Assembly (NCBI GenBank): GCA_041749335.1
Contig: JBGTBM010000009.1
Coordinates: forward strand, 179 to 64,178
DNA from: Patescibacteria group bacterium
GTDB taxonomy: Bacteria > Patescibacteriota > JABMPQ01
DNA length: 64,000 bases
Reading direction: 5' to 3'
Shown here: piece by piece, positions 20,790-41,400 of the stretch
Numbering within the stretch: position 1 is the first letter of the stretch
Layout of the letters: every line of letters starts with the position of its first letter
The notes under the pieces: model-generated
What the model saw: the letters and a program-made list of their open reading frames with translations, nothing else
The model's database searches: none
What the model was told of the DNA's origin: nothing
Made by a program: the position numbers and the translations under genes

Positions 20790-21675
20790 AATAAAAGTTA
20801 GTATAATTATCCCAACATATAATGAAAAAGAGAAATTAATTAATTGCATAAATTCAATATATAATCAAAGCTACCCAAATAATTTAATTGAAGTTATTGT
20901 AATTGATGATGGTAGCACGGATGGAACAAAAAATTATCTAAAATATAATTTTAAAAAAGTATTATTAATTGAAAAGCAAAATACCGGAGCCTATGATTCA
21001 AGAAATAGGGGTATAAATATTGCCACCGGAGATATTTTAGCGTTTACAGATTCTGATTGTGTCGCAGATAAAAATTGGATAAACAATATTGTCAAAAATA
21101 TTAAAGATAGCAAAAATATAATCGCGGGAGGAAAAATAGTTCACAAAAATAATTTTATTCAAAAAGTCATTGGCATTTCCGATTTTGGCGAATATCAAGA
21201 TGACAAAATTAAAAACATTAATGCAATACCAACCGCGAATCTAGCCGCAAGTAAAATTATTTTTGATAAATATCGTTTTGATCAAAGCTTAAAATCCTCT
21301 GGAGACCGCCTATTTAGCTGGAAACTTTTCAAAGATGGATTCAAACTTATATATTTCCCCGACATAATCATATTTCATGATCCATCCATCAAATTATCCA
21401 GATTTTTTGAAAGAAAATATCGTTATGGCAAATCCTTTATAGAAATAAGAAAAAACCATCCCGATTTACCAGGCTCAAAAATAGTTAAGTATCATATATT
21501 AGGCGCTTATTTAATTTCCATCCTAAGAACCATTCTGGATATATTCAGATTATTTAAAACATTGAAAAATAATAATATTAAGATATATGAAATAGTACCA
21601 GCTATCGTACTTATTGGCCTAGGGAGAATTACTTTCTTATGTGGAAATATTGTACAATTGATTAAAAATGATTAA
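20773..21675 (+). CDS. Glycosyltransferase family 2
   Basis: VSIIIPTYNEKEKL...VIVIDDGSTDGT. Confidence 0.8.
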   Translation: MSSINKIKVSIIIPTYNEKEKLINCINSIYNQSYPNNLIEVIVIDDGSTDGTKNYLKYNFKKVLLIEKQNTGAYDSRNRGINIATGDILAFTDSDCVADKNWINNIVKNIKDSKNIIAGGKIVHKNNFIQKVIGISDFGEYQDDKIKNINAIPTANLAASKIIFDKYRFDQSLKSSGDRLFSWKLFKDGFKLIYFPDIIIFHDPSIKLSRFFERKYRYGKSFIEIRKNHPDLPGSKIVKYHILGAYLISILRTILDIFRLFKTLKNNNIKIYEIVPAIVLIGLGRITFLCGNIVQLIKND

Positions 21676-23320
21676 TTTTCTTAAAAAAAATATATACCAC
21701 CTAGTTTTTTTTATTTTAATAATATTTTTTACTATTTTTTATTTTTCAAATTTTTCATATGGCGCGCTTGGCAACGACTCTCCCGGTTATATTTTTACCG
21801 CTTCTAAATACTATCACAACGAAAGCCCAACTTACCGAGACGAATTAGTTTCTGACCTATTGTTAAAATATAATAAAGACGAAATTGGATTCGCCTTACC
21901 TCATTTTAATTATAAATTAATTTCAGAAGATGGTAAAATTACCCCAAAAAATTCTACCGGCGGGCCATATTTAATGGCATTAATGGCAAAACTGTTTGGC
22001 GAAGAAGGTTTTTATTATTTAAACCCCCTATGTGGAATAATTATTCTTATTAGTTTATACCTGCTTATTATAGATTTATTTAAAAAGTTTAAGTATAAGT
22101 ATATCTTAGGACTTAGTTCTGTATTTATTTTAGGAATAATGCCGCATTTCTGGTCTTATATTATGTGTGAACCATTACGTGAAATCTCGTCGCTGGCGTT
22201 TATTTTATTATCATTTTGGTTATTTTCTTTAGCAATAAAAAAACCAAACTATATACTAATATCTCTATCGGCATTTATATTTGGCTGGAGCATAAATATT
22301 AGAGAGAACGCCATTTTATTTATTATTTGCTTTCCAATTTTATACTTTATTTATAAAAAGAAATTTAATTTAAAGATAATTATTGCTATCTCAATTATCT
22401 TTTTTATTTTTACATCCTTGGCCTACTCTTTCACATTACGGAATAATTATAAAGCACAAAATGAAATAGAATCAACAACTGGAGAATCCTTGACGGCAAA
22501 TGCCGATCATATAAAAAATATCAAAATTAAAAATTGGTGGGATAATCAGGGTAAATTTAGAACCGGACAGGGAGGTTTATCAATTTATTATAATCACATT
22601 AAAGAAATATTTTTTTTACCTTTTGTAATATTTTTTATAATATTGGGATTAATAATAAATTTATTTCAAAATTGGAAGTTGGGTATATTGTTTTTATCCG
22701 CAACGGTACCGACTTATCTTTTATTTTCAGCATGGATTAATCCCTATACCCGCTATATTTATGCGGTAATCCCCCTTTTAACGTGCCTGCTAGTCTATGG
22801 ATTAATATTTATTATTGAAAACATTAATCAACTTTTAAAACCTAAAATGCAAATTTTTTATAAATCATTAATAATAATTATATTAACAATATTTTTGTTG
22901 CCACAAATAACATCTGCCTTTTCGATATTTTCCGGTGAAAAAATGCCTAGCACTAGATCAATTTCAAAAAATGATTTTAACACTATAAATAATTTATCTA
23001 TTTCTGATGATAAAACGGTATTAATATGCCTTGGAAATTCAATATATATGTCGGCCTTTATCGAAGCGCATACCAGGATTCGTACTATAAAAGCGCCGCC
23101 AAATGAAAAAATAAATGAAATAATTAATTATTTAATAGATAAAAACTATTCAGTTTATATTTGGGATGATGGAACCAATATTGAACAAAAAGACATTTTA
23201 AAAACATATTTTAGTCATAGTCTATACGTGTCATTAATTTTCGATTTTATAGATAACTATATATCAAATTTAAAAATACCAGGCAACAAAGTAAATGTTT
23301 ATAAAATAATCAATAATTAA
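21668..23320 (+). CDS. Polytopic membrane protein, GT-C-like (candidate lipid-linked-sugar-dependent glycosyltransferase)
   Basis: 550 aa with many TM helices and an extracytoplasmic C-terminal domain. It sits downstream of the DPM1-like GT2. There is no motif-level confirmation. Confidence 0.35.
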   Translation: MINFLKKNIYHLVFFILIIFFTIFYFSNFSYGALGNDSPGYIFTASKYYHNESPTYRDELVSDLLLKYNKDEIGFALPHFNYKLISEDGKITPKNSTGGPYLMALMAKLFGEEGFYYLNPLCGIIILISLYLLIIDLFKKFKYKYILGLSSVFILGIMPHFWSYIMCEPLREISSLAFILLSFWLFSLAIKKPNYILISLSAFIFGWSINIRENAILFIICFPILYFIYKKKFNLKIIIAISIIFFIFTSLAYSFTLRNNYKAQNEIESTTGESLTANADHIKNIKIKNWWDNQGKFRTGQGGLSIYYNHIKEIFFLPFVIFFIILGLIINLFQNWKLGILFLSATVPTYLLFSAWINPYTRYIYAVIPLLTCLLVYGLIFIIENINQLLKPKMQIFYKSLIIIILTIFLLPQITSAFSIFSGEKMPSTRSISKNDFNTINNLSISDDKTVLICLGNSIYMSAFIEAHTRIRTIKAPPNEKINEIINYLIDKNYSVYIWDDGTNIEQKDILKTYFSHSLYVSLIFDFIDNYISNLKIPGNKVNVYKIINN

Positions 23321-24226: not shown

Positions 24227-26743
24227 TTAACCATTGATCATTTTTTCGCTATTAAATAAATCACTAAATATTGATTTACTTTTAATGTTATTGGTCATAT
24301 TAGATATTTTTTTTTCGCTCTCATCTCTTTTTTTAATAATATTATTAATAAGATGTAATATTTTATCGTTGTTTAAACCATTTCTGCAATCATAATAATA
24401 TTCTATTTGATTATAGCTTTTCAATAGCTCATAATATTTATTTGCCCACCCTATCACCACGGCCGGAATTGAATTTTTATAAGCATGAATCACAGAATGG
24501 AATCTGGAAGCAATTATGAATTTTAACTGTTTTATAACATATTCCATTTCAATAGTGTTAAAATCATTGGGAATAATTGTAACATTCTCTGATTTATAAT
24601 TGCTCTTAATTTTTCTATTTATCTGATCATCTTCATTAGAATACCCGATTAAATAAATATAATATTTCCTCTTAATTAACTCATTAATTATTTGATTATA
24701 TAATGAAAAATATTTATTTTTATTAACTCGTTCCGCCACTCTAATATTTGGCACAATGCCTACAGAATTGCCGGATAATTTTAAAAATCTTAACTTATCA
24801 GGTTCTTTAAATAATTTTTTAATATTTTCCTCGTAATTACATCGCAACACTATGTCAAAACTTTTTTCCACATTGTTTTTAGTAAATTTCATTATCGCTT
24901 TATAGCTCTTATCCTCGCGTGCATAAATTTTTACTGGATATTTTAATAATATTTTCATTAATGGGAAAAGAATGATTTTTTGATAAATTTTATATTTGAA
25001 TGGACCAAAAGATTGCGGCAATAAATAATATTTTATTAAATATTTTCTCATCAATAATATATCGTGCATGCACATTAATGAACGATTGAATCCCCTTTGG
25101 GAAGATAAGGCATAACCGCTAACGTCGAAAGCATATTCGGTATTCTTTAATATATTGTTTATTTCATTCTGCTGTTTAATATTTTCTGTTTTATTTAATA
25201 TACCAGATTTTATACTTGAAATTTCCATTATCGCAAAGTTGTATGTATCTTTATAATCCAAGGTTTTTTTGTCGCGCGTTAATAAATATATATTATGTTT
25301 GGGATATTTTTTTTTCATTTCGCTAACCACAGAAAGAGTCATTGCTTCAGCTCCTCTGTTGCTAGTTCCTCCGCCCAAAATAATAATATTATTTTTTACA
25401 CCTATGGTTTTTTTGTTTAATTTATTTTTAATCAACAGTTCTCCTAAAATGAGAAGACCACCTTTAAATATTTTTAATATTTTTTTAATCCGTTGCTTAA
25501 TTTTATTTATTTTAATAAATAAACGTATTTTATAATATTGATTATCTCTTCCAAAATTTATATATTTTTCTTTTTTAATTAAATCTCTAATAATATTTTT
25601 ATCAAGCACGCTGTTATATGTAAAATTAGATAATTTGTTTTTTAGACTAAAATATTTAGCCTGTTTAAAATTTATAAGTTTCTCCTTTAATTTTTGTGAG
25701 GCTAATATTTTTTCAACATCTACTTTCTGTGAAATAAATTTATTTTTATATTGATCGTAAATCGTCCTACCCTTTTCTGTTCTAATAATAATATTTGATT
25801 TACCCAATTTACTTTCCTCTCCGGGAATATAGCAATCACCAAACGAAATATCAGCTTGTCGATTTAATTTATCATTGCAATATAGGCAGCGAGATAATTG
25901 ATAATATTGCTTTATAGAAATTCTTTCTTTCCGATCGATAAATATTTTTTGACCATCATTGAGTTCAATTTTTGTATTTCCCGGCCAACCGCCACATTCC
26001 TTTGTTCTAAAATCTAATATATTGATTTTATTGTTTTCTTTTATATATTTTTTCTTAAAATACTTATAAATATTAAGATTTAATGTGTTATCGCAAAAAA
26101 GCCCGAGAAAGAGAATATTTTCTTCTTTAATATTTAATTTTGAAAGAATGTTTTTTATAGCTGTAAATTGGCAGCCAGTGCCTACAATAATATATTTTCC
26201 AAAAGGATTGCGTTTAATTTCTTCAATTACGGGATAAATTGAAACCGGAATATATTTGGATTTTGCGGAATTTATAACTTCAGAAATTTGGTTAGTGGGT
26301 TTCAATTTGGGAATGTTATTTTTATCAAAATAATCATATTGCAGCGTAAAAGCTTTATCATAAATATTATCTCTTATTAGCTCTATAATAAGAGTAGTTA
26401 TTATTCCTCCACTAGCCGAATTTTTTCTAATTTTTATATCTTTAGTGTATGTAATGTATGAATCAAGGCAAGAACCGGCCAATTCAATTTCAGAAATATT
26501 ATTTTTAATAAATAAATTAAAAGGATCAAGATTATATCCCGGACAAATATTTTTACATAATCCACATTCTGTGCAAATTTTATTATCTATAACGGGTATA
26601 AATTGCCCCTTATTAAATATCATTGATATAGCGCCAACCGGACAGATAGCACGACATCCTTCGCATGATGTGCATAAATTCAGTTCAATAGTTTTTTTAA
26701 TCGTATTATTATTTCTCATTGTATTACTCTTTTCAAGTTTCAT
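24227..26743 (-). CDS. Fusion protein: 2x[4Fe-4S] ferredoxin + FrhB/FdhB-like (coenzyme F420 hydrogenase beta-like) domain + polysaccharide pyruvyl transferase (CsaB/WcaK family)
   Basis: The N-terminus carries CTSCEGCRAICP and CTECGLCKNICP, two CxxCxxCxxxCP motifs. The middle domain is FrhB-like. The C-terminal half has GGGTSNRGAEAM (GxxNxGDxA-like) and ASRFHSVIHAYKNSIPAVVIGWANKY, which are typical of pyruvyl transferases. Confidence 0.65.
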   Translation of the reverse strand: MKLEKSNTMRNNNTIKKTIELNLCTSCEGCRAICPVGAISMIFNKGQFIPVIDNKICTECGLCKNICPGYNLDPFNLFIKNNISEIELAGSCLDSYITYTKDIKIRKNSASGGIITTLIIELIRDNIYDKAFTLQYDYFDKNNIPKLKPTNQISEVINSAKSKYIPVSIYPVIEEIKRNPFGKYIIVGTGCQFTAIKNILSKLNIKEENILFLGLFCDNTLNLNIYKYFKKKYIKENNKINILDFRTKECGGWPGNTKIELNDGQKIFIDRKERISIKQYYQLSRCLYCNDKLNRQADISFGDCYIPGEESKLGKSNIIIRTEKGRTIYDQYKNKFISQKVDVEKILASQKLKEKLINFKQAKYFSLKNKLSNFTYNSVLDKNIIRDLIKKEKYINFGRDNQYYKIRLFIKINKIKQRIKKILKIFKGGLLILGELLIKNKLNKKTIGVKNNIIILGGGTSNRGAEAMTLSVVSEMKKKYPKHNIYLLTRDKKTLDYKDTYNFAIMEISSIKSGILNKTENIKQQNEINNILKNTEYAFDVSGYALSSQRGFNRSLMCMHDILLMRKYLIKYYLLPQSFGPFKYKIYQKIILFPLMKILLKYPVKIYAREDKSYKAIMKFTKNNVEKSFDIVLRCNYEENIKKLFKEPDKLRFLKLSGNSVGIVPNIRVAERVNKNKYFSLYNQIINELIKRKYYIYLIGYSNEDDQINRKIKSNYKSENVTIIPNDFNTIEMEYVIKQLKFIIASRFHSVIHAYKNSIPAVVIGWANKYYELLKSYNQIEYYYDCRNGLNNDKILHLINNIIKKRDESEKKISNMTNNIKSKSIFSDLFNSEKMING

Positions 26744-28240
26744 TTAATTAGCATTTTTAAAGATTTTTGTTCGAATATTTTTTAAACTTTCTCTAATGTA
26801 ATATTTAATTTTTTCTATTTCTCTCGCTTCAAAAAATTTTATTAAATACAAAAGTGCAAAAAATAACAATATTAATATAATTTTAATAATAAACAACCAA
26901 ATTATATTAAACTCTGGTATGAATCTATCGACTATTAATATAAATATAATTACCAATATTATTTTTATAATCCTATTCCATTGATAATTTATTTGATAAA
27001 AATAATTACTAACAAAATAGGTTAATATTATTAACAATGAATAAGAAATAATTGTCGAAATGGCCGCTCCTAGCATAGAATATTTAGGAATTAATATAAT
27101 ATTTGAAAAAATATTAATTGCTCCGCATATAATTAATATTAAGGCGGAAATTTCAGTTCTCCTTTTTAAATTTATTCCAATATTAATCATAAAATAAATT
27201 CCATAAAATAAATACGATAAAGCAATATATGGAACTATTATAGCCGCTTGATAATATGCTTCGGTGGAAATTATTTTAATTATTTCTTCTGAAAATACCG
27301 TTATTCCGGTAAAAAGAAAACCTCCTAATAAAACATAGTATATTATAATATAAGAAAAGATATTTTTAGCTTTTTCTTCTTTCTTTAATATTGACCACAT
27401 TATTTGCGCCCAAGCTAACTGAACAGGAGCAACAAATAAAAAATTAATCATCATGCCAATGTTGTAGCCCAAGGTATAGATACCGACGATGGAAGATCCG
27501 ATCATTCGCTCCAGCAAAAATCGATCTATCATAGTCATCACCCATGATGCCAGCGCAGCGGGAACTAAAGGAATGCTAAATCTTAATATTTTTTTCAATT
27601 TTACAAATGAAAATCTAAAATCAATATTTTTAATAATTATTGGCAGGCTCATGATGAAAAATATCATAAAGGCATACATCATTCCCCTCAATGCACCTAT
27701 AACTCCTTGATCCAAATATACCATAAAATATAATATCAATCCGATCTGAATAATTAAACGTGCGATAATATACAAACTATATATTTTTGATTTTGCCTTT
27801 GATCTCAATATCGATAGTGAAATCAATGATCCGACATCAAAAAAAGATGTAATAAATATTATTCTTAAATATTGACCATAATCTGCAGTCGCAAAAAATA
27901 ATTCGGAAATATTATCAGCATAAATATATAAAACTGCTACTACGAGTAACGAAAACAAAAATAAGAATATTACGATAGTGCTCACTAGGTTTCTTCTATC
28001 TTTCTCTTTTGTATAATCGTATATGTAAAAACGAAATAATGTGGTTTGCAGGCCCAAGGATAACATTATTATTACGATATTTAGAGTAACAGTCATAAGA
28101 GATAAAACTCCGTATTCATCAGTTGATAAGACCCTGGTATATACTGGAATTAGAATAAAAGCGATAATCTTGCTAATTAAGCTACCAAAACCATATATTA
28201 TTGAATGTTTCCCTGTTTGTTTAAGATATTTCGCGATCAT
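26744..28240 (-). CDS. wzx: Wzx-type oligosaccharide flippase (MOP superfamily)
   Basis: About 14 TM helices and an N-terminus typical of polysaccharide biosynthesis proteins (SIIYGFGSLISKIIAFILIPVYTRVL). Confidence 0.7.
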   Translation of the reverse strand: MIAKYLKQTGKHSIIYGFGSLISKIIAFILIPVYTRVLSTDEYGVLSLMTVTLNIVIIMLSLGLQTTLFRFYIYDYTKEKDRRNLVSTIVIFLFLFSLLVVAVLYIYADNISELFFATADYGQYLRIIFITSFFDVGSLISLSILRSKAKSKIYSLYIIARLIIQIGLILYFMVYLDQGVIGALRGMMYAFMIFFIMSLPIIIKNIDFRFSFVKLKKILRFSIPLVPAALASWVMTMIDRFLLERMIGSSIVGIYTLGYNIGMMINFLFVAPVQLAWAQIMWSILKKEEKAKNIFSYIIIYYVLLGGFLFTGITVFSEEIIKIISTEAYYQAAIIVPYIALSYLFYGIYFMINIGINLKRRTEISALILIICGAINIFSNIILIPKYSMLGAAISTIISYSLLIILTYFVSNYFYQINYQWNRIIKIILVIIFILIVDRFIPEFNIIWLFIIKIILILLFFALLYLIKFFEAREIEKIKYYIRESLKNIRTKIFKNAN

Positions 28241-28303: not shown

Positions 28304-29947
28304 ATGTTAACCAAGATATTAAGTTTTTGGAAATATCATAACCTTTATATAATTATATTATTATCAATAATATTTTTTTTCATATATTCTTATATTTCGT
28401 TTCAATTTCCCGAATATTTTAATTCTCCAGATGAAGCCGCAAATTATTATTTTATCAATCATTTCATTGAAAATTTTAACTTTAGTTTTTACGAACCTTT
28501 AAACTCAGAATTTGCTAATTTATTACATCCCAGAAATTCAATTGTGATAGAAAACAATATAGTCCCGCTTTGTTTTCTAGGATTCCCCTTGCTCATTGGA
28601 TTTTTGGGAAAATTAATAGATGTCTCAATTATTTTATTTATCGTTCCGTTTTTTTCATCTACGGCGGCAATATTTTTTTATTTATTGCTAAGAGAAATTT
28701 TTTCGGAACGAATAGCTATTCTATCAAGTATTATTCTATTATTTCATCCTGCTTTTTGGTATTTTTCTTCACTATCAATGCATCATAATGCCCTATTCTC
28801 CTCGTTTTTTATAATTTCTTTATATTTTTTTATTAAATTATTAAAAAATCCCACTATTCTACGCTATTATATTCTGTTTTCAATCTTTATTGGCTTAACT
28901 ATAACCATAAGAGCTAATGAATTGGTATGGCTTGCCATATTGTTTTTTTCGCTTTTAGTATTCTATCGTAAAAGTATAAATATTAAATATTTATTTATAA
29001 GTTTATTGTGTTTATTGTTTATTTTAGCTCCATTTTTTTATTTTAATAATGCCACTTATTCCAGTCCATTTTCAACTGGTTATTCTCATAAAGTTGATAT
29101 TGATCTAGAGATATCGGGTGTCGAAAATAGTTCAAATGGAATATCTAAAATTTTTAAAATAATCGCTCCTTCCGGCATACGCCCAGAAAAAGTTCTGGAT
29201 TCATTTTTAGAATATTTTATTATTATTTATCCAATTTTTTCAATTTTAGTTTTTAGCGGTATCATTCTAGCAGTTAAAAATAGAGCCAAATTTAATCAAA
29301 AGCAAAAATTATATTTTAAATATTTATTAATATTATCTTCTTATTTGATAATTTATTATGGCGGCGGATATTATTTTGGTGCCAGCGGTTTGGATACTGA
29401 CTTTAATATCAGTTCTTCGCTAATAAGATACTGGCTTCCGATATTTATATTTAGCATTCCCCTGATAAGTATCATAATAATTAAAATATTGGGAAAATTT
29501 CAGCATAATTATTTAAAGATGTTCTCCTATTCATTAATAACGTTGCTATTAATGATCTTTTCATTTAATTTAGTCTATAATGATAAAAATTTTGGTTTAA
29601 TAAAAATTGCCAATAATACAATATTATATAAGCAAATATCAGATGGATTGCATAATTCCATTAATAAAGATGCAATCATTATTAGCAATAATGCTGATAA
29701 ATTTGTTTTCCCCAAATTTAGAGTAATCGGAACAAATTTAGAACTTGATAATTTTTTTCAAAATGAGAATGTAATTAAAACAATAAATGAACAAACAAAT
29801 AATTTTGAAATATATTATTTTACTATGTTTGGCCTTAATGATTTTGATAATATAAGTGCTAGATTAAGAAGCAAAGGTATTGAACTTATTCCCGATGTAA
29901 CAATAAAAGACATAAGCAGTTTGTATATAATCACAAAAGCTTTTTAG
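28304..29947 (+). CDS. Polytopic membrane protein with extracytoplasmic C-terminal domain (possible GT-C-like)
   Basis: 547 aa, at least 10 TM helices, extremely AT-rich. SPDEAANYY follows the first TM helix. Confidence 0.3.
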   Translation: MLTKILSFWKYHNLYIIILLSIIFFFIYSYISFQFPEYFNSPDEAANYYFINHFIENFNFSFYEPLNSEFANLLHPRNSIVIENNIVPLCFLGFPLLIGFLGKLIDVSIILFIVPFFSSTAAIFFYLLLREIFSERIAILSSIILLFHPAFWYFSSLSMHHNALFSSFFIISLYFFIKLLKNPTILRYYILFSIFIGLTITIRANELVWLAILFFSLLVFYRKSINIKYLFISLLCLLFILAPFFYFNNATYSSPFSTGYSHKVDIDLEISGVENSSNGISKIFKIIAPSGIRPEKVLDSFLEYFIIIYPIFSILVFSGIILAVKNRAKFNQKQKLYFKYLLILSSYLIIYYGGGYYFGASGLDTDFNISSSLIRYWLPIFIFSIPLISIIIIKILGKFQHNYLKMFSYSLITLLLMIFSFNLVYNDKNFGLIKIANNTILYKQISDGLHNSINKDAIIISNNADKFVFPKFRVIGTNLELDNFFQNENVIKTINEQTNNFEIYYFTMFGLNDFDNISARLRSKGIELIPDVTIKDISSLYIITKAF

Positions 29948-29999: not shown

Positions 30000-31523
30000 A
30001 TGAATAATAATAATAATAATAATAATAAAACTAAATTCATTAAATTTTTTATATATTTAATACCGATATTAATTTGTTTATGGTTATTAAATAAATATTT
30101 CGTTTTTACGGGAAATTTAGATTCTTCCTACGTTTTTGACAATCAACCTTCAATATTTAATGAACTACAACCCGAAACTCGCGTGCATAGCCCAGAAATA
30201 AATTTAAAAACCGGTGAAAAATATCAAAGGATTCAGAGTGAACTGGTTTATTTTTCATTAAATATACCCCGATCTTTTCAAAAAGCTAATTTTACTTTTA
30301 CTTTCGACGCTCCCTCACAGCCAATAATTAATGTCGGAATAAAAAGAGCTTATGAAGATACTAGTTATGAATTTAAAACTTTAAAAAATGACTATTTTGA
30401 TAAATTAAATAAATATTGGACCAAAACTTATGACAAAAATAATAAAATAGTCTTAATGCAAAATTTAAATAAAGAGAATGAAAATTATGATACGGTACAA
30501 GGTTTTATTAATAATCCGCCTCAAAATAAAAAGATTGGAACATATTATATCGATTTAACTGATAATAAAAAATTAGAAAATTATAAACCCTCCAATAAAA
30601 TTAACAATATTGAAACTCCCTTAAGGGGCAAACACGAAATATACACATATATTAAAGATGAAACTCTAGATTATAATTTCTCTTACTATGATTTAAATAA
30701 CGAAGAAGGCCTAGATCAATTTAATATTAATGTATATAAAGGTCTTAAACTCGTTTATTCAAATTTATCTGAAGATGATGGAAATAATAAAGCAAATAAT
30801 TTAGTTTCTGAGTTTAAACAATTCCAACTTAAAATTCCTGATTTGGCTGAAGGTAAATATTTAATAAAACTCGCTTTACCAGAAGATATTATAATAAATA
30901 AAATTACTACCAGGCAGAAATACACTGTATTTGCAAGCAGAATACGCACTGTTGGCAATCGATTAGAATTTAATAATGATTATTCTTTTTCAGAAGTTCC
31001 TGTTAAAATATTTTCGCCTAATTCAAATTTTCAATTAAGAACATTCGGCCCTGTCAGCGAACAAGAAATATTAATAGACAATCAAAGCATTACTTTATCT
31101 TCAAATAACTCATCGCTTATAAATCATTCGACGGGCAAAGAAAATAACGAATTAATAGAAATTAATGCTCCCCTTGGCAATATTTTATTATTGGCACCTA
31201 TCTTTGTTTTTAATAAAGAGCAATATTTTGATCCATATTTTAATATAAACCAAATAGCATTAAATACTGCAATATCAGATGAATTTGATTATATTATTGG
31301 TACCATTGACGATTATTTAACCCCACAAAAATATCGCAATTGGTATAAAAACGAAATATCATTTGAAACCGCTAACGCCTACACGGAAAATGGTGAATTG
31401 AAATTTGCAATTCAAATTCCCGGATTTAACAACATTGATGATGTAATTATAAAAGATATTAAAGTCAACTTGCAGACCGATAATATATTTAAAAGATTAT
31501 TTAATAAAATAAATATTTATTAA
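30000..31523 (+). CDS. Hypothetical TM-anchored extracytoplasmic protein with N-terminal poly-Asn tract
   Basis: MNNNNNNNNNKTK, then one TM helix, then a roughly 470-aa hydrophilic domain with no recognisable motifs. Confidence 0.4.
   Translation: MNNNNNNNNKTKFIKFFIYLIPILICLWLLNKYFVFTGNLDSSYVFDNQPSIFNELQPETRVHSPEINLKTGEKYQRIQSELVYFSLNIPRSFQKANFTFTFDAPSQPIINVGIKRAYEDTSYEFKTLKNDYFDKLNKYWTKTYDKNNKIVLMQNLNKENENYDTVQGFINNPPQNKKIGTYYIDLTDNKKLENYKPSNKINNIETPLRGKHEIYTYIKDETLDYNFSYYDLNNEEGLDQFNINVYKGLKLVYSNLSEDDGNNKANNLVSEFKQFQLKIPDLAEGKYLIKLALPEDIIINKITTRQKYTVFASRIRTVGNRLEFNNDYSFSEVPVKIFSPNSNFQLRTFGPVSEQEILIDNQSITLSSNNSSLINHSTGKENNELIEINAPLGNILLLAPIFVFNKEQYFDPYFNINQIALNTAISDEFDYIIGTIDDYLTPQKYRNWYKNEISFETANAYTENGELKFAIQIPGFNNIDDVIIKDIKVNLQTDNIFKRLFNKINIY
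30003..30029 (+). repeat. (AAT)9 trinucleotide microsatellite inside the start of a CDS
   Basis: aat repeated 9 times immediately after the ATG. Confidence 0.9.
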
Positions 31524-31526
31524 AAT

Positions 31527-31910
31527 ATGAAATACCTATTTAAAACATTTATTCATATTAAAAATTCAACGCTGCTTATTATAAATACAATATTTATCAC
31601 ATCTCTTTTTTCTTATCTTTTATTGTTTTTGTTTAATATATTCCTAGGGGATTTTATCACTAATTTTATAAATTTAAATTATTTATTATATCCACTTGGA
31701 ATATCTTTAATTATTTTAATTTTTAATAATAACAATACTTATATAAACCAAGAATCTAACACTTTAACCCGTTTATTTATTTCTATTATTGGAAGCTTTA
31801 TAATATTCTTTTTAGCTAAAGAGCTGGGAGTATTTAAGTGGTTATTGACTCTATCGATTTTTTTTATACTATTTTATTCTACAAAGAACTTCAATAACGA
31901 TTCGCAATAA
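31527..31910 (+). CDS. Small 4-TM membrane protein, GtrA-like candidate (lipid-linked sugar flippase)
   Basis: 127 aa with about 4 TM helices, immediately upstream of a GT-C-like gene and near a GtrB-like GT2. Confidence 0.35.
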   Translation: MKYLFKTFIHIKNSTLLIINTIFITSLFSYLLLFLFNIFLGDFITNFINLNYLLYPLGISLIILIFNNNNTYINQESNTLTRLFISIIGSFIIFFLAKELGVFKWLLTLSIFFILFYSTKNFNNDSQ

Positions 31911-31968
31911 TTTTTTCGATAATTAACTTATATTATTTTATAAAATTGCGAATTTTTAATATAAATCG

Positions 31969-33888
31969 ATGAATAAAGTATTTAATTTTAATAAAATTAT
32001 TTTATTAATCAAATATATTAATATTATTTTAATATCTACTACTTTTATATTTTTACTTTATATAATTTTTTATTTGTTTTTATCCTTTAATTATTTAAAT
32101 TTATTATTTACCCATTCTGACATTTTTCTTTTTTCTTTAATATTATTTGATTTATTTATTATTTTTATATTTATTAAAAATAATAAATCATTAAATATAA
32201 ATATTCTTTATTTATATATTGCATTATTTATTTTATTAGAAGTGCCCTTATTAATTAACGGCTTTAATAATTCTATCATCCTTTTTCAAGATTTAGATTA
32301 TAATCAGTGTTTTATTGTAATATTTCTCGGAATGATAATATATTTTTTTACTAACAAGGGTAAATATTTATCTAGCAAAATTTTTAATAATAATTTACTT
32401 ATTATTAATTCTAAAATTAATAATAAGTCTAAATATTCCATATTATTAATATTTTTATTATTTTTACTTATAAAACTTTTAATTCCTTATTTTTATCAAG
32501 GATCATATATTGATGAATATTTTCATATTTTACATGGTATAAATATTTTTAATAACCTTGAAACAAATTATATCCGGGGCCTGCCCATCACCTTTTTATG
32601 CGGCCTACTTATTAATTTATTTGGAAATGAACTTTTTATTTTAAAATTAATTCCGGCAGTTATCGGAATCATAAACTTTTTGTTGCTTTATAAAATATCA
32701 AAATATTTTTTTAATAATTACAAATATACTTCATTATTATTAGCAATTTACACAATTTCTCCTTGGATAATTTTTAATCATTTTTATATAAGGTTTTATG
32801 TTTTGTACGAATTATTATTATTATTATCAATTTATATTTATTTTATAGTCAATAATTCTATAGCGAAAAAAAGATTAGTTTTGTCGCTATTATCCATAAT
32901 CATTTTCATTGTATTTAATGTTTTATTGTTCTTTATAATTAATGATTCCGGCTTTTATATGATAATTATTTTTAATTGTTTTTTAATATTCTTTTTAGTT
33001 ATTAAAAGTATATTAATTTTATCAAATGCAATTATAAAAAATATTTTTAAATATTTTTTTTATATACTTATAACTTTTTTCTTTTTTTATTTATTATTTA
33101 ATAATAAATTTAATTATTTAATAAAAGTAAATCTTGCTAACACCAACTATGAAATAAATAAATATGAATATTTCTTTTTTTATAAAAATATCGGCTTTAC
33201 AATATTATTTATTTTATCAATTTTTATCGCTTTAAAACATTTAAATAAAAAAGGTGAAATCAAATCTCAAAATATTATATTTATAGCTTCCTTTTTAATT
33301 CTGATAATACATTTAATATCTTCAAGTGACTTGCAACTAATTCGAAGTATAGTATACTTTATCCCCTTGTTTTATTTAGTTGCAATTTATTCTCTTAAAC
33401 ATTTAAATATTAAATCTATCTATAAATACCCAATAATGCTATTTTTATTTTTAACTATATTCAACAACTACCCAAGTAAATTTTTTAGCGATGGGCCTTA
33501 TATACCTTCAGAAGTTTTTTACCGAAGATTTAAAGAATCTTTTGACTTTATTAAAAATAATTGTGACGATTATTTCATAATTAATTTGACAAAAAATCAT
33601 TATGTTTCTTCTTTCTATGATATTAACGAATATTATCTTATTAATTCAATTTATTATAACAATCCATTGAGTGTTAATTATGATAATAAATTTATTAATT
33701 ATGAAAAATATAAAAATAAAATAAGAAAAAATGAGAATATATGTTATTTATATTCTCATTTGTGGTCAGTTAATAATAAAAATAAAACCTATCAATCTAT
33801 CCGTAGATACCTTAAAAATAATTATGATGATAAAATATCCTTTGGTAATTTTGAAGTGTTCATTTTTTTAAATAAAAATAATAATTAA
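31969..33888 (+). CDS. GT-C family membrane glycosyltransferase-like protein (ArnT/PMT/YfhO-like)
   Basis: 639 aa with many TM helices. YIDEYFHILHGINIF is DE-motif-like in an early loop. It converges on the GtrB-like GT2. Confidence 0.4.
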   Translation: MNKVFNFNKIILLIKYINIILISTTFIFLLYIIFYLFLSFNYLNLLFTHSDIFLFSLILFDLFIIFIFIKNNKSLNINILYLYIALFILLEVPLLINGFNNSIILFQDLDYNQCFIVIFLGMIIYFFTNKGKYLSSKIFNNNLLIINSKINNKSKYSILLIFLLFLLIKLLIPYFYQGSYIDEYFHILHGINIFNNLETNYIRGLPITFLCGLLINLFGNELFILKLIPAVIGIINFLLLYKISKYFFNNYKYTSLLLAIYTISPWIIFNHFYIRFYVLYELLLLLSIYIYFIVNNSIAKKRLVLSLLSIIIFIVFNVLLFFIINDSGFYMIIIFNCFLIFFLVIKSILILSNAIIKNIFKYFFYILITFFFFYLLFNNKFNYLIKVNLANTNYEINKYEYFFFYKNIGFTILFILSIFIALKHLNKKGEIKSQNIIFIASFLILIIHLISSSDLQLIRSIVYFIPLFYLVAIYSLKHLNIKSIYKYPIMLFLFLTIFNNYPSKFFSDGPYIPSEVFYRRFKESFDFIKNNCDDYFIINLTKNHYVSSFYDINEYYLINSIYYNNPLSVNYDNKFINYEKYKNKIRKNENICYLYSHLWSVNNKNKTYQSIRRYLKNNYDDKISFGNFEVFIFLNKNNN

Positions 33889-34817
33889 TTTTCAATTACT
33901 TCCTTGACAGAGTAATTTGCTCTATTTTTATTATAATATGTCTTTATGGCAATATCAGCTAAAATTCCTGAAATAAATAGCTGTAGACCAACTAAAACTA
34001 AAAATATTGCTACTAACGGCCAGATACTATTTTGCAAAGAGATTTTTCCTAAAATTCTGGTAATGGCTAGATAAATACCAAGGATAAATCCCCCCCCGCC
34101 TATTAATATTCCAAAACTGCCAAATAAATGCAGCGGCCGGGCAGAAAATTTTCTCCAAAACCAAACCATCCACATATCAAGAAAACCTTTTACAATCCTC
34201 CTTAAATTATATTTGGTTTTGCCAAATTTTCTTTCACGATGTTCCACTTTTACTTCACCCACTTTAAAGCCTTTCCACTTCAATATTGCGGGAATAAACC
34301 GGTGCATTTCTCCATACAGATCAAGATCATCAAAACATTCTTTCCGATAGGCCTTTAACGTACAGCCTGAATCGTGAATTTTATCTTTGATTAATAATCC
34401 CCTTAGTATATCAGCTCCGCGTGAAATAATTTTTTTTATAAAAGGATCTCGTCTTTTATAGCGCCACCCTGATACCAAATCATACCCTTCATTCAATTTA
34501 CTGATTAATTTACTGATTTCCGAGGGCGGATTTTGTCCATCACCATCAAGCGTAATTATTATCTCTCCTCTAGCTCTCTTGATGCCGGCATCTAGCGCGG
34601 CCGTTTGCCCAAAATTTTTCCTAAAATTTATTATTTTTATCGAATATAATTTTTTTAATTTTTCTAGGGTATTATCAATTGATCCGTCATTAACAAATAT
34701 TACTTCAAAATCCAAAGCGATCTTTTTCATTTCGTAAATAATTTCCCGATGCAATGAAATAACATTTTCTTCCTCATTAAAAACTGGCACAATAATTGAA
34801 TATTTTGGTTTGTTCAT
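33885..34817 (-). CDS. Polyprenyl-phosphate glycosyltransferase (GT2, GtrB/CsbB/ArnC-like) with 2 C-terminal TM helices
   Basis: YSIIVPVFNEEENV...VIFVNDGSIDNT...TLDGDGQNPP plus two C-terminal TM helices. Confidence 0.8.
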   Translation of the reverse strand: MNKPKYSIIVPVFNEEENVISLHREIIYEMKKIALDFEVIFVNDGSIDNTLEKLKKLYSIKIINFRKNFGQTAALDAGIKRARGEIIITLDGDGQNPPSEISKLISKLNEGYDLVSGWRYKRRDPFIKKIISRGADILRGLLIKDKIHDSGCTLKAYRKECFDDLDLYGEMHRFIPAILKWKGFKVGEVKVEHRERKFGKTKYNLRRIVKGFLDMWMVWFWRKFSARPLHLFGSFGILIGGGGFILGIYLAITRILGKISLQNSIWPLVAIFLVLVGLQLFISGILADIAIKTYYNKNRANYSVKEVIEN

Positions 34818-34818
34818 A

Positions 34819-36150
34819 TTATTTTATTAATTCACTCTTAATAATACCGATAATATATTTTATATTTAAATTTATTTTTAATTTTAATCCCAATTTTTTT
34901 CTTAAATAATATATCTCAAATATCGCAACTACCAGCTGTGCAAATACTGTTACGATTACTGCACCCAATGCTCCATAAAATGGTATAAATATTAAATCTA
35001 GTATTACATTAACTGCTGCACCAAATAATACAATGCGTGTTGTGTATTTAGCGTACTTTGTAGCTATTAAAAAAGTTCGACAGACACTAAATATTTTTAT
35101 TAATAAAAGTGGTAGTAATACTTTAAGTAATATAATTGATGCTTGATATTGAGGAAATAATTTTTCAATTAATGAATCTGATAATACAAATAAAAGTAAG
35201 GTGGTTGGAAAAACAAATATAATCGACAAGGATAATATTTTTGTAAATAATTCCTGGAGTTTTTCTTTCCTTCCATCAATAAAATAAGTAGTAATCACCG
35301 GTGCGAATACAGCACTAATAAAAGTAAATATTACTACAAATGGCATCTGAAATATTTTGTCAGCTACATTAAAATAAGCAACTTCGGCATTATCACAATA
35401 TTTTCCAATTATTATAATATCTATTCTAGTATATAAAAAATATGTCACGCTCGTTATACTAATCGGAATTGCATATTTTATAATTCTTTTTCCTGTATTA
35501 ATAATATAAATCTTTTGTTCTTTTATATATCTTAAATATTTATAATCGATTATTATAAACCCAAATATTACAGAAATTAATATTCCAAATATTGTTATTA
35601 ACAAAACATTAAGAATTTCTAATTTTTGATATTTGATCAATGCCAGCAATAATGATATTTGAATAATTCTAGATATAAAAAAAGTTAGAGTAGAATATTT
35701 CAAATTTTGGTAACCTTTAATAATACTTTCAACTATTGCACTTGAACAAGATATAATTATAAAAGCAGGTGCGATTTTTAATAAAATTGTAAGTTCCTCT
35801 CTATTAAATATTTTTGAAATATAATCTTTTAATATAAATAAAACAATTCCCAATATTAAAGAAATTATAATTGAATAAATTATACTAGTTATGATTAAAG
35901 ATCTTGTTTCTTTTTTTTCAATTTCCTTGTTTGATAAAGATTCAGCGATATATTTTGATGTAGACTCACTTAATCCGTTTACTACAAAGTACATAAAAAA
36001 GAAGGTGATTGAATAAAATAATAAATATAACCCATATTTATCAGGGTCCCAAGTATTAGATAAAATAAAAAAAACTACAAATATTGAAATATTTGATATT
36101 ATTATTTGAATAATTTTCCAGAAACTATTCCTCGCTATCTTTGATATCAT
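34819..36150 (-). CDS. wzx: Wzx-type flippase (MOP superfamily), second copy
   Basis: 443 aa with about 12 TM helices. Confidence 0.65.
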   Translation of the reverse strand: MISKIARNSFWKIIQIIISNISIFVVFFILSNTWDPDKYGLYLLFYSITFFFMYFVVNGLSESTSKYIAESLSNKEIEKKETRSLIITSIIYSIIISLILGIVLFILKDYISKIFNREELTILLKIAPAFIIISCSSAIVESIIKGYQNLKYSTLTFFISRIIQISLLLALIKYQKLEILNVLLITIFGILISVIFGFIIIDYKYLRYIKEQKIYIINTGKRIIKYAIPISITSVTYFLYTRIDIIIIGKYCDNAEVAYFNVADKIFQMPFVVIFTFISAVFAPVITTYFIDGRKEKLQELFTKILSLSIIFVFPTTLLLFVLSDSLIEKLFPQYQASIILLKVLLPLLLIKIFSVCRTFLIATKYAKYTTRIVLFGAAVNVILDLIFIPFYGALGAVIVTVFAQLVVAIFEIYYLRKKLGLKLKINLNIKYIIGIIKSELIK

Positions 36151-36153
36151 CCT

Positions 36154-37023
36154 TTACCTCTTCCATTTAGATAAATCCTTTTTAAATAATATTTCCAACT
36201 GTTCAATATCCTTAATAAATTTTTTTATAAGGTATTTTCTAGTACAATTTTCCATATTTCTATAAACAATTTTTCTTGTCGATAAGTTAATAATCTTTTC
36301 TTTAAAACCGCTTTCTTTTATTTTTTTGATAACGTTTGATAAATTAAATAATATCATTGCTTGAGATAAATATTTCATTAATGATAATATTAATACGTTA
36401 TTAATCTCCCTTGAAGAATTTACTTTTTCATTTATTTTATTTGGAATAAACTCATCATCAACTTCTAAAAATTTATATAATTTTTTTATTTCTATTAAAG
36501 GATTTTGTTTAATATCTTCTATAAATAAAAATATAATTTGTTTTTTATCAAAATATTTTAACCATCTATTAATGTGAAAACTATATAATCCTTTATCAAT
36601 ATACTCCTCTTCTAATCTTACGACATCTTCAAAATCTCTTTTTTCTTTCTTAAAATAATTTTTATACATCAAATACTGTGAATAAGCCCTATCTATCGGA
36701 TTTCTTAAACACACAATTATTTTTATATCAGGAAATTTTATTTTTATTCTTTTTGGTGCTTCTTTATCAATCAAATATTGAGTTGAGAACTCTCCCTTTA
36801 CGCAATTATTTTTACAATGCTTAAAATGTTTTGAATACCACTTAAAAGTTTTATTGAAATTTCTATTTTTAAAATTAAAAATATATGATGATTTTTTATT
36901 AAAATATTGAACTTCTTTTGGTTCAGATAATTCAATCTCGGGATGTTGATCTAGCATTTTTGATAACCATGTCGTGCCTGCTTTTTCTGCTCCTATGCCA
37001 ATAAAGTTAATTTTTAAATCCAT
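36154..37023 (-). CDS. Sulfotransferase (PAPS-dependent family)
   Basis: 5'-PSB motif IGIGAEKAGTTWL and 3'-PB motif CLRNPIDRAYSQY. Confidence 0.75.
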   Translation of the reverse strand: MDLKINFIGIGAEKAGTTWLSKMLDQHPEIELSEPKEVQYFNKKSSYIFNFKNRNFNKTFKWYSKHFKHCKNNCVKGEFSTQYLIDKEAPKRIKIKFPDIKIIVCLRNPIDRAYSQYLMYKNYFKKEKRDFEDVVRLEEEYIDKGLYSFHINRWLKYFDKKQIIFLFIEDIKQNPLIEIKKLYKFLEVDDEFIPNKINEKVNSSREINNVLILSLMKYLSQAMILFNLSNVIKKIKESGFKEKIINLSTRKIVYRNMENCTRKYLIKKFIKDIEQLEILFKKDLSKWKR

Positions 37024-37051: not shown

Positions 37052-37756
37052 CTAACTATATAATTTTTTTCCTACAATAATAAATCTTCTAAGAAATGTT
37101 AATCTCAATTTATATATTTTTGAATTAATAGAATTGCCCTTGTAAAACAATGTTAAAACTTTAATTAATTTACTAATTATTATTCCAATTACCCCCTCAA
37201 GGAATGAATAAAAATATTTATATTCAAATGTATTAAGATTATTATTATAAAATATTTGAATAATTCGCCTAACAGTCGTTATATTATTATGAGTATAATC
37301 GCAATTAAAAAAATCATTTCTCCAATCTAAATAATCTGGACTAAGTATTATTATCATCCCTCTTTTTTTTAATACTCTTTCTGATTCTGAAATAAATGTT
37401 TCTGCCTCATTAGAATTATTTAAGTGCTCATATACATCAAAACATAAAATTATATCATACGATTCATCTATTTCATTCAATGTTGGTATTTTATAATTAC
37501 TTACCTTTCGGACACCAATATTCTTCATTAATTTATTCATATTAATATTTGGCTCAACAACATCGTAATTTTTATATCCATTTTTGAGAAATACTTTTGC
37601 CAAATCTCCCTTCCCTGGTCCAATTTCTAAAATATCACAATTCTTACTTCTTAAATATTTACAAATATATCTAAAATCTCTCTTAGTTTTTCTATTATGT
37701 AATAATTTACCAATTTTAGTAGATTTGCTTTCTGCAAAGTGGTCAAAATATGGCAT
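37052..37756 (-). CDS. Class I SAM-dependent methyltransferase
   Basis: Motif I ILEIGPGKGDL and post-I ILCFDVYEHL. Confidence 0.7.
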   Translation of the reverse strand: MPYFDHFAESKSTKIGKLLHNRKTKRDFRYICKYLRSKNCDILEIGPGKGDLAKVFLKNGYKNYDVVEPNINMNKLMKNIGVRKVSNYKIPTLNEIDESYDIILCFDVYEHLNNSNEAETFISESERVLKKRGMIIILSPDYLDWRNDFFNCDYTHNNITTVRRIIQIFYNNNLNTFEYKYFYSFLEGVIGIIISKLIKVLTLFYKGNSINSKIYKLRLTFLRRFIIVGKKLYS

Positions 37757-40616: not shown

Positions 40617-41400
40617 TTACTTTAATTTACATACAAATATTGTCCCCGCACAACATATCCATGGAGATATTGACTTTAATATTCCTTCTAATTTATTTCC
40701 GATTCCATTTAATTCATATTTTTTATTTTTTGCTCGTAGAAATGGGAAGTCCATATAAAAACCCATACTTTTAGGTTTTTTAAAATCATCGGCTGCAATT
40801 TCAACAATTTGAAAACCATTCCTAAGTAAAATCTTTTTAAATTTATTTTTTGTAAAACGATATTCGCCAAAAACCATTTTACATCCATTGATTTTATTTA
40901 ATAAAACAAATATATTTTTTATATGATTTATAAATAATCTTCTGATAAAATTTTGAGTTGGAATTGTTATAATCAGATAACCATTTTTTCTTAAAACCCT
41001 TCTCATTTCATCCAAGGCCCCTTGGGGACCCTCCTTAAAATGTTCCACCACTCCTAATGAAATTATTACATCAAAATAATTATTTGGATATTTTATATCT
41101 AATATATTTCCTTTTTCAATTTTAATATTACTTCCAGATAATTTTATTTTTTTTATATATAGCATCATCACTTAACTCTATCCCTTGAATATCATATCCT
41201 TGACTATTTAAATAGAATACCCACCTTCCTAATCCGCATCCCGCCTCTAATATTTTATGAGTTTTTTTTAAATACTTATTAAATATATCATCTACATTTT
41301 GGTATTTACACAATGCAATTCCTTCATTTATTGATTGACCCAACCAACATTGGCCTAAAGTATCTCTATTATTTTCTTTTTGATAATGTATATAAGTCAT
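40617..41400 (-). pseudogene. SAM-dependent methyltransferase disrupted by a frameshift at an A8 (plus-strand T8) homopolymer
   Basis: ORF 41128-41400 carries motif I ILEAGCGLGRW. ORF 40617-41171 carries FDVIISLGVVEHF and LRKNGYLII. The frame switches within the T8 run at 41147-41154. Confidence 0.65.

Follow-up and report, generated by a model that had tools for sequence, protein, structure and literature searches.

Systems that add lipid-linked sugars to acceptors outside the membrane are already known and have been described as widespread. In the Gtr O-antigen glucosylation systems of Shigella and Salmonella phages, a membrane-anchored polyprenyl-phosphate-sugar synthase of glycosyltransferase family 2 (GT2) and a polytopic GT-C glycosyltransferase that acts outside are encoded by adjacent genes. 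Streptococcus pyogenes GacI/GacJ/GacK/GacL and Citrobacter youngae ORF15/ORF14/ORF12 (GT136) combine a lipid-phosphate-sugar synthase with a flippase of the MOP superfamily and a GT-C enzyme (PMC8035078, PMC11127046). MATE-family flippases occur in three-component systems (PMC11127046); GacK is of the Wzx type, GacI/GacJ is a split synthase and a second, acceptor-binding protein has been proposed (PMC8035078). A precedent in Haloferax volcanii is AglD/AglR/AglS (a dolichol-phosphate-mannose synthase, a Wzx-like flippase and a dolichol-phosphate-mannose mannosyltransferase), in which the final sugar is added outside from a separate dolichol-phosphate carrier and the Wzx-like protein is implicated in flipping (PMC3871713). 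In the CsbB/GtcA/YfhO glycosylation of teichoic acids in Bacillus and Listeria, a GT-A synthase and a GT-C enzyme decorate a wall polymer outside the cell (PMC8035078, PMC7389260), and PMT, bacterial Pmt (GT39) and ArnT (GT83) are fed by Ppm1/DPMS or ArnC. Here we describe a locus comparable with these systems in a 64,000 nt stretch of DNA from a Patescibacteria group bacterium (assembly GCA_041749335.1, contig JBGTBM010000009.1, positions 179 to 64,178; hereafter the window), in which the gene for a 639 aa GT-C protein converges with that for a 310 aa GT2.

We suggest, with a probability of about 0.55, that this locus encodes a multi-component system for the transfer of lipid-linked monosaccharides outside the membrane, with the donor made by the GT2 and the GT-C acting as the transferase. 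An earlier note on this DNA had proposed a Gtr-type module made up of a 127 aa GtrA-like protein, the GT-C and the GT2. The lipid-linked donor mechanism, the GT2 and the GT-C all survive, but the GtrA component, and with it the 'GtrA/GtrB/Gtr' label, does not: the 127 aa protein has no GtrA match, which had been named beforehand as one of the findings that would refute the proposal.

RESULTS

The 639 aa protein and the GT-C lineage

The 639 aa protein has no match in Pfam, in NCBIfam or, by sequence, in the PDB, and searches of the sequences of solved structures with the protein alone or with a profile of its family returned noise only. An indexed search found 21 relatives, all unannotated. 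With the family profile, an exhaustive search recovered 1078 cluster representatives at E<=1e-3, of which 188 reach E<=1e-30.

The predicted structure has a GT-C transmembrane (TM) fold, and its top matches by structure include AglB, STT3 and PglB. An N-terminal extension with four TM helices (residues 1-150) is followed by the GT-C core and by a C-terminal alpha/beta ectodomain (residues ~500-639). The extension (31969-32420; about four TM segments) is weakly conserved and is 144-261 residues long in most full-length members of a 22-sequence alignment; three apparently truncated entries in that alignment have extensions of 10, 99 and 153 residues. Other long extensions in the family (P0042, P0062, P0113, P0087, P0059 and P0072) have no Pfam domain and no similarity to the family of the 507 aa protein encoded nearby.

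All 22 aligned family members have an Asp-Glu (DE) pair, D182-E183, within the sequence GSYIDEYxHI, and several further Arg, Glu and Tyr residues are also invariant. GT-C enzymes have been described as being marked by a DE motif in loop 1 (PMC8698208). The topology check that had been proposed was run and places the motif in an outward-facing loop (residues 176-204, predicted to be outside by the positive-inside rule). When compared with a profile of five co-occurring PMT_2-type proteins, the family aligned over 448 columns with a probability of 99.2% (E 1e-19) and with the DE motifs of the two in register. There was no match when hhalign was run for the family against the 547 aa or the 550 aa protein of the window as single sequences, so the homology is seen only with the profile of the five PMT_2-like neighbours.

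The 639 aa protein has no direct match to the PMT_2 hidden Markov model (PF13231), its homology being of the profile-profile kind, and by the Pfam criterion it is a relative of PMT_2 rather than a member. There is no WW[DN][YWF] (WWD) motif in the 22 members and no STT3 or Wzy_C Pfam match. Because the family is homologous to PMT_2-type profiles with aligned DE motifs, and because the motif in loop 1 is a GT-C hallmark, the view that it is a divergent, unmodelled branch of the PMT_2/ArnT-like GT-C lineage is well supported. The description of this protein as GT-C-like and polytopic is thus upheld by its fold, its many hydrophobic segments and its conserved DE motif.

Two predicted polyprenyl-phosphate synthases

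The 310 aa GT2 matches PF00535 (4.5e-31). Among proteins in the PDB, it aligns with ArnC (9hwj; E 3.9e-44, residues 5-308), with GtrB of Synechocystis (5eke; E 1.3e-31, full length) and with DPMS of Pyrococcus (5mlz; E 1e-23). Its full-length NCBIfam matches are ArnC (1.4e-49) and PgfS (6e-44), both under the equivalog cut-offs; on the ArnC model it scores 168.9 bits against a cut-off of 529 bits. Hydropathy shows two C-terminal TM helices (residues ~230-253 and 258-293), a feature that typifies such enzymes. This confirms the 310 aa protein, at the level of class, as a predicted polyprenyl-phosphate glycosyltransferase of the ArnC/GtrB/PgfS type. The full-length alignment to ArnC and GtrB and the two C-terminal helices bear out its earlier designation as GtrB/CsbB-like in the same sense, as a class. 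The match to ArnC falls far short of equivalog level (169 versus 529 bits), which argues that, unlike ArnC/ArnT, the module in the window is not a system for 4-amino-4-deoxy-L-arabinose; genes of the Arn pathway were not detected in the window.

A 313 aa GT2 encoded elsewhere in the window matches AglJ of NCBIfam over its full length (1.2e-30) and DPMS in the PDB (5mlz, 2.7e-12), and also has two C-terminal TM helices by hydropathy. It is a predicted second polyprenyl-phosphate glycosyltransferase, DPMS/AglJ-like in character. The AglJ model is matched by both GT2s of the window.

A candidate flippase and the 127 aa protein

The gene for a 443 aa protein of the Wzx/MatE type (Polysacc_synt, 6.7e-32; MatE, 5.4e-14; MurJ, 6.4e-10) lies 1 bp upstream of the 310 aa GT2 gene in the same minus-strand operon, as a check of the junction sequence confirmed. 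The 443 aa protein, rather than the 127 aa protein, is the best candidate for the flippase role. The window encodes a second Wzx-type flippase of 498 aa (Polysacc_synt, 1.4e-23; Polysacc_synt_3, 1.1e-18).

The 127 aa protein has about four hydrophobic segments by hydropathy, and its description as a 4-TM protein stands in that respect; its GtrA-like identity does not. The open reading frame (ORF) is probably a real gene, because 500 shuffles of the 31-34 kb region gave a stop-free run of at least 127 codons only twice and because it fills the slot between the 507 aa and 639 aa genes on the coding strand. Its product has no PF04138 match at E<=10, no NCBIfam match and no alignment to a phage GtrA (the identity of which was verified by tblastn against annotated gtrA genes). 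Among 5.8 billion (5.8e9) clustered sequences it matched only itself. The sole relative is a 140 aa protein at the same position in a Patescibacteria metagenome-assembled genome (MAG; locus L002), and the similarity is weak (pairwise E 2e-4). Among 60 loci that encode relatives of the 639 aa protein (non-redundant by name, some still near-duplicates), a counterpart is present in two, and no GtrA-like small membrane ORF was found in any of the 60 by tblastn, a search of limited sensitivity in that its query was one enterobacterial GtrA. We also considered whether the 127 aa protein is a split-off or duplicated copy of the N-terminal extension of the GT-C, and rejected this as the two have no similarity.

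A classical GtrA/GtrB/Gtr(type) trio, with the 127 aa protein as a GtrA-like flippase, would fit the size of this protein, its approximately four TM segments and its position immediately upstream of the GT-C gene. Set against the missing PF04138 and GtrA matches, its orphan status, its occurrence in two of 60 loci and the lack of a GtrA-family ORF near members of the GT-C family, such a trio is very improbable. The 127 aa protein is small, membrane-embedded and specific to its lineage, and has no role that can be demonstrated.

Proteins encoded with the GT-C

The coordinates of the genes discussed here are given in Table 1; those of the seven ORFs named in the earlier note, and their strands, all proved exact. 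The convergence of the 639 aa and 310 aa genes was likewise correct, and the two overlap by 4 nt.

Table 1. Positions in the window of the genes and the motif described in the text
Feature	Position	Strand	Remarks
313 aa GT2	18784-19725	+	Predicted second polyprenyl-phosphate glycosyltransferase
550 aa polytopic protein	21668-23320	+	Possible third GT-C
498 aa protein, second Wzx-type flippase	26744-28240	-	Divergent from the 547 to 639 aa block
547 aa protein	28304-29947	+	Opens the plus-strand block 547, 507, 127, 639
507 aa protein	30000-31523	+	Second in the same block
127 aa protein	31527-31910	+	Between the 507 aa and 639 aa genes
639 aa protein	31969-33888	+	Last in the same block
D182-E183 codons of the 639 aa protein	32512-32517	+	Putative catalytic DE motif in the first outward-facing GT-C core loop; translation checked
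310 aa GT2	33885-34817	-	End gene of a minus-strand operon
443 aa Wzx/MOP-family flippase	34819-36150	-	Same operon as the 310 aa GT2

The 547 aa and 507 aa proteins had been described as big membrane proteins of no known family. For the 547 aa protein this is overturned by a match to PMT_2 (PF13231; 1.9e-8, 35.1 bits against a cut-off of 26.1 bits), and it is a predicted PMT_2-type GT-C glycosyltransferase. Its DE motif is D43-E44 (nt 28430-28435, checked). Searches of solved-structure sequences with the 547 aa protein or with the PMT_2-like profile returned noise only. The 507 aa protein is not a big membrane protein: one TM helix at its N-terminus anchors a beta-rich ectodomain, the model of which resembles carbohydrate-binding modules (a beta-sandwich) at low confidence (predicted local distance difference test score, pLDDT, 62.6). 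The plus-strand block that contains these genes is conserved in the Patescibacteria MAG, where the syntenic proteins are a PMT_2 protein of 535 aa (33% identical to the 547 aa protein, E 4e-73) and one of 505 aa (E 1e-30 to the 507 aa protein).

Next to this block in the MAG, where its order is PMT_2, 505, 140, a short GT2 of 228 aa is encoded beside a 117 aa DUF2304 membrane protein (L002, 99-1135, minus strand). From this arrangement the pair looks like a split polyprenyl-phosphate-sugar synthase of the GacI/GacJ type; we take GacJ to be a DUF2304 member.

The 313 aa GT2 and the 550 aa protein had been put forward as a possible second set. The first half of this proposal holds in that the GT2 is DPMS/AglJ-like, and the GT-C nature of the 550 aa protein is suggested by weak matches only. 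The latter has no Pfam match. It matches the LA_3751/3752 putative glycosyltransferase family of NCBIfam (5.5e-4), the 547 aa protein over the PMT_2 core (BLAST, 1e-4) and the PMT_2-like alignment over only 81 columns (hhalign, 78.6%, E 1.7e-5). On these similarities it is plausible as a third GT-C.

Gene neighbourhoods of the GT-C family

The 639 aa family is found in Methanobacteriota, Methanosarcinales, Woesearchaeota, Patescibacteria, Saccharibacteria, Puniceicoccaceae, Hydrogenedentota, Bdellovibrionales, a cyanobacterium and Parablautia muri (loci L009-L024); it spans methanogen and DPANN archaeal MAGs, Verrucomicrobia and a cultured Firmicute (P. muri D42-62). This patchy distribution across domains is typical of horizontally exchanged glycan genes.

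Neighbours were counted in the 18 related loci in which both flanks of the GT-C gene extend for at least 5 kb and in the 30 with at least 5 kb downstream. The most conserved is a Wzx gene, downstream and convergent, in 14/18 and 24/30 loci, respectively. A 507-like partner is encoded directly upstream of the GT-C in 12/18 and 15/30, a full-length ArnC-like GT2 is present in 6/18 (within 10 kb) and 9/30, and a PMT_2 GT-C in 6/18 and 7/30. GtrA was found in 0/18 and 0/30. Linkage of an ArnC-like GT2 to the GT-C family is thus enriched, not universal (6/18 loci). Several of the archaeal MAGs carry the GT-C gene beside Wzx. The convergent Wzx is 40-66% identical across distant taxa (L006, L038, L040, L041, L045, L047 and others), in comparison with ~30-35% for the GT-C.

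The prominence of Wzx raises the main alternative, that the family is the outside enzyme of a Wzx pathway, which either polymerizes a flipped polyprenyl-diphosphate-oligosaccharide in place of Wzy or, in the manner of an oligosaccharyltransferase or ligase, transfers it en bloc to a protein, a lipid or the wall, while the 507-like partner would keep hold of the acceptor or of the growing chain. This would account for the frequency of the convergent Wzx gene and for the conservation of its L006-type product in many loci across the domains of life. It would also account for several loci (L005, L006 and L007) that have Wzx and multiple cytoplasmic GT2/GT4 enzymes but no recognizable Wzy, WaaL or STT3 within 8 kb, and AglB, STT3 and PglB rank at the top by structural similarity. 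However, the sequence homology of the family is to PMT_2-type enzymes and not to STT3, the WWD motif occurs in 0/22 members, and Pfam matches to STT3 and Wzy_C are lacking. In addition, the window has its own gene of the Wzy_C family (15023-16600), its 443 aa Wzx is only 22-30% identical to the Wzx subtype conserved beside the GT-C family, and the fusions described below, encoded close to a DPMS-like GT2, point to a monosaccharide-phosphate-lipid donor. We therefore regard this explanation as possible but unlikely. A further step, which we consider quite unlikely, is that the GT-C family moves horizontally together with the 507-like partner and the convergent Wzx, as a cassette not described before, in which a PMT_2-derived GT-C replaces Wzy, WaaL or an oligosaccharyltransferase as the recipient of the flipped diphosphate-linked oligosaccharide. 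If so, the GT-C of the cassette, which occurs in methanogens, DPANN archaea, Patescibacteria, Verrucomicrobia, cyanobacteria and a Firmicute, would represent a polymerase or en bloc transferase of a new class.

Among the top 150 representatives, four (P0129, P0134, P0141 and P0150) have an LPG_synthase_TM domain (MprF-type, flippase-like) where others have the variable extension at the N-terminus. The genes of L024 (Minisyncoccia) and L059 follow the order UDP-sugar dehydrogenase, GT2, GT4 and then the flippase-like::GT-C fusion (L024, 3687-4799; L059, 2165-3556), and the GT2, two genes upstream of the fusion, is 49% identical to the 313 aa GT2. These two loci are compact synthase-flippase-GT-C arrangements within the same GT-C family. 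In Parablautia the GT-C is a distant member of the family (hhalign 98.9%) that keeps the DE motif, and a GT2 that is 52% identical to the 310 aa GT2 is encoded adjacent to it, downstream and in the same direction. The Parablautia locus (L023) comes from NZ_QZDT01000001.1, at about 398-417 kb, and the two proteins have 879 aa (GT-C, L023 7870-10509) and 336 aa (GT2, 11300-12310). A 681 aa neighbour in Parablautia was considered as a relative of the 639 aa family and rejected as unrelated.

It could be argued that the adjacency of GT2 and GT-C in the window is incidental, the 310 aa GT2 serving the Wzx operon or the 547 aa or 550 aa GT-C and the 639 aa protein drawing its donor from elsewhere, for example from the 313 aa GT2. 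The GT2 gene is in a convergent operon, relatives of the GT-C pair with GT2s resembling either the 310 aa or the 313 aa protein, and for two synthases there are three candidate GT-Cs in the window. In contrast, an ArnC-like GT2 near the GT-C in about a third of the loci is far above the expectation for an estimated one to few copies per genome, and the Parablautia genes are adjacent and co-directional. Incidental adjacency is distinctly improbable on this evidence.

Proposed mechanism

The neighbouring GT2s and the flippase fusions point to a putative polyprenyl-phosphate-linked donor for the GT-C, and the transfer of lipid-linked monosaccharides might proceed as follows. By homology, the 310 aa GT2, and probably also the 313 aa GT2, would transfer one sugar from its nucleotide-activated form to polyprenyl phosphate on the membrane's cytoplasmic side. 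The lipid-linked sugar would then be flipped outward, most likely by the 443 aa Wzx/MatE-type protein. The 639 aa GT-C, and in parallel the 547 aa GT-C, would move the sugar to an extracytoplasmic acceptor through the outward DE motif; we infer the chemistry of this step from the fold, motif and topology described above. The membrane-anchored 507 aa beta-sandwich protein, encoded directly upstream, may help in binding the acceptor. With two synthases and two or three GT-Cs in the window, several pairings are possible.

The acceptor would most likely be a methylated, sulfated or pyruvylated glycan of the same genomic island, or a surface protein. Were secreted or surface proteins the sole acceptors, the donor chemistry would be the same and the 547 aa and 639 aa proteins would be PMT-like O-glycosyltransferases of Ser/Thr-rich regions, comparable with actinobacterial Ppm1/Pmt and with streptococcal GtrB-dependent O-glycosylation. 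This has a small but real chance of being correct: no MIR or other protein-acceptor domain was detected, the 507 aa partner resembles carbohydrate-binding modules (at low confidence) and the genes lie inside polysaccharide clusters in essentially every locus.

Several observations weigh against the transfer of lipid-linked monosaccharides by a GT2/GT-C pair. An ArnC-like GT2 is nearby in only about a third of the related loci as compared with about 80% for Wzx, which suggests that the flippase is a tighter partner than the GT2, and the usual cargo of Wzx is a diphosphate-linked oligosaccharide. The GT2 gene ends the convergent minus-strand operon rather than the GT-C operon, and for this reason its adjacency to the GT-C gene could be incidental. 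The fold cannot separate phosphate-linked from diphosphate-linked donors, as AglB, STT3 and PglB also score high. Finally, the N-terminal 150 residues of the 639 aa model are poorly predicted and the confidence of the 507 aa model is low.

The surrounding glycan island

The genes lie in an island of low GC content at ~20-44 kb of the window (0.17-0.27, as compared with 0.35-0.39 in the flanks), in which the 639 aa gene has the lowest value (0.171). Both synthase genes are near the core GC content (0.333 for the 310 aa and 0.398 for the 313 aa gene). The island encodes GT2 and GT4 transferases, the two Wzx-type flippases, a sulfotransferase, methyltransferases and a pyruvyl-transferase fusion, and nucleotide-sugar enzymes are encoded just outside it. 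The flanks encode bacterial housekeeping proteins (SecA, SecDF, L9, AspRS and CTP synthase), and the MAG that shares the gene block, the nearest relative by synteny, is from Patescibacteria; both observations make a Patescibacteria (CPR) bacterium the probable host. The secA gene at the window edge only looks truncated, because the window ends within it. Scans of the window for tRNAs and Rfam families gave no matches, and a scan for promoters and terminators was uninformative in this AT-rich DNA (102 promoter-like sites, 79.5 expected).

In the glycan operon there are genes for a sulfotransferase and two S-adenosylmethionine-dependent methyltransferases (36154-37023, 37052-37756 and 40617-41171, all minus strand). 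An 838 aa fusion (24227-26743, minus strand) combines 4Fe-4S ferredoxin motifs and the N and C domains of FrhB (F420-hydrogenase beta-subunit) with a polysaccharide pyruvyl transferase, and shares an operon with a Wzx flippase. The enzymes of these operons suggest that the surface glycan may be sulfated and methylated, and also pyruvylated.

A second glycosyltransferase cluster, of normal GC content, lies just upstream of the island and includes genes for a DUF4012 protein (11178-13142, minus strand) and for the 525 aa Wzy_C protein (O-antigen ligase/polymerase family; minus strand) mentioned above. At the edge of the island, a 380 aa protein (44939-46081, minus strand) has MopE-type putative metal-binding motifs and a LamG/concanavalin-like domain. 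Two neighbouring genes (58012-59427 and 60256-61989, both minus strand) encode proteins with FG-GAP repeats and a cell-wall enzyme domain each, a YkuD L,D-transpeptidase in one and an M14 carboxypeptidase in the other.

DISCUSSION

The mechanism proposed here is an expected one, and the locus shares parts with each of the systems outlined above. It differs from the Gtr systems in having no GtrA-family protein and in that the genes converge rather than form a gtrABC operon. It also has more components, with two synthases, two or three GT-Cs and, in addition, a single-pass partner that is conserved, and the setting is a chromosomal glycan island and not a prophage. The Gac and Citrobacter systems resemble it in that the 443 aa Polysacc_synt/MatE gene is co-operonic with the GT2, and the 507 aa protein fits the second acceptor-binding protein proposed in PMC8035078. 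The GT-C of the window, however, comes from another sequence family, one that Pfam does not model, and flipping of a monosaccharide-phosphate-lipid by Wzx is here a prediction only. The AglD/AglR/AglS pathway has the same division of labour in an archaeon, whereas the host here is bacterial.

Among PMT, Pmt and ArnT enzymes, the 547 aa protein has its place as a PMT_2 member and the 639 aa protein as a remote homologue, and the GT2 is ArnC-like. In contrast with these enzymes, the 639 aa protein lacks a direct PMT_2 match and MIR domains and has the N-terminal extension of variable length with additional TM helices. The CsbB/GtcA/YfhO systems differ in that there is no GtcA/GtrA-type protein and no YfhO Pfam match in the window, and the host is a different one, probably an ultra-small bacterium. 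With the oligosaccharyltransferases STT3, PglB and AglB (GT66) the likeness is structural only, as there is neither an STT3 Pfam match nor a WWDxG motif.

What is new is a GT-C family that neither Pfam nor NCBIfam models, the anchored partner conserved with it and the family's consistent pairing with Wzx rather than GtrA. Patescibacteria live attached to host cells, and to our knowledge their surface glycans are essentially uncharacterized. Lipid-linked extracytoplasmic glycosylation diversifies cell surfaces and governs recognition by phages, hosts and the immune system. To this the locus contributes a GT-C family that had no annotation, with some 1,000 cluster representatives in Archaea and Bacteria, and a conserved accessory protein that fits the idea of a second acceptor-binding protein. 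The cultured P. muri, in which a GT2 52% identical to that of the window is encoded beside a distant member of the family, offers a tractable entry point for experiments.

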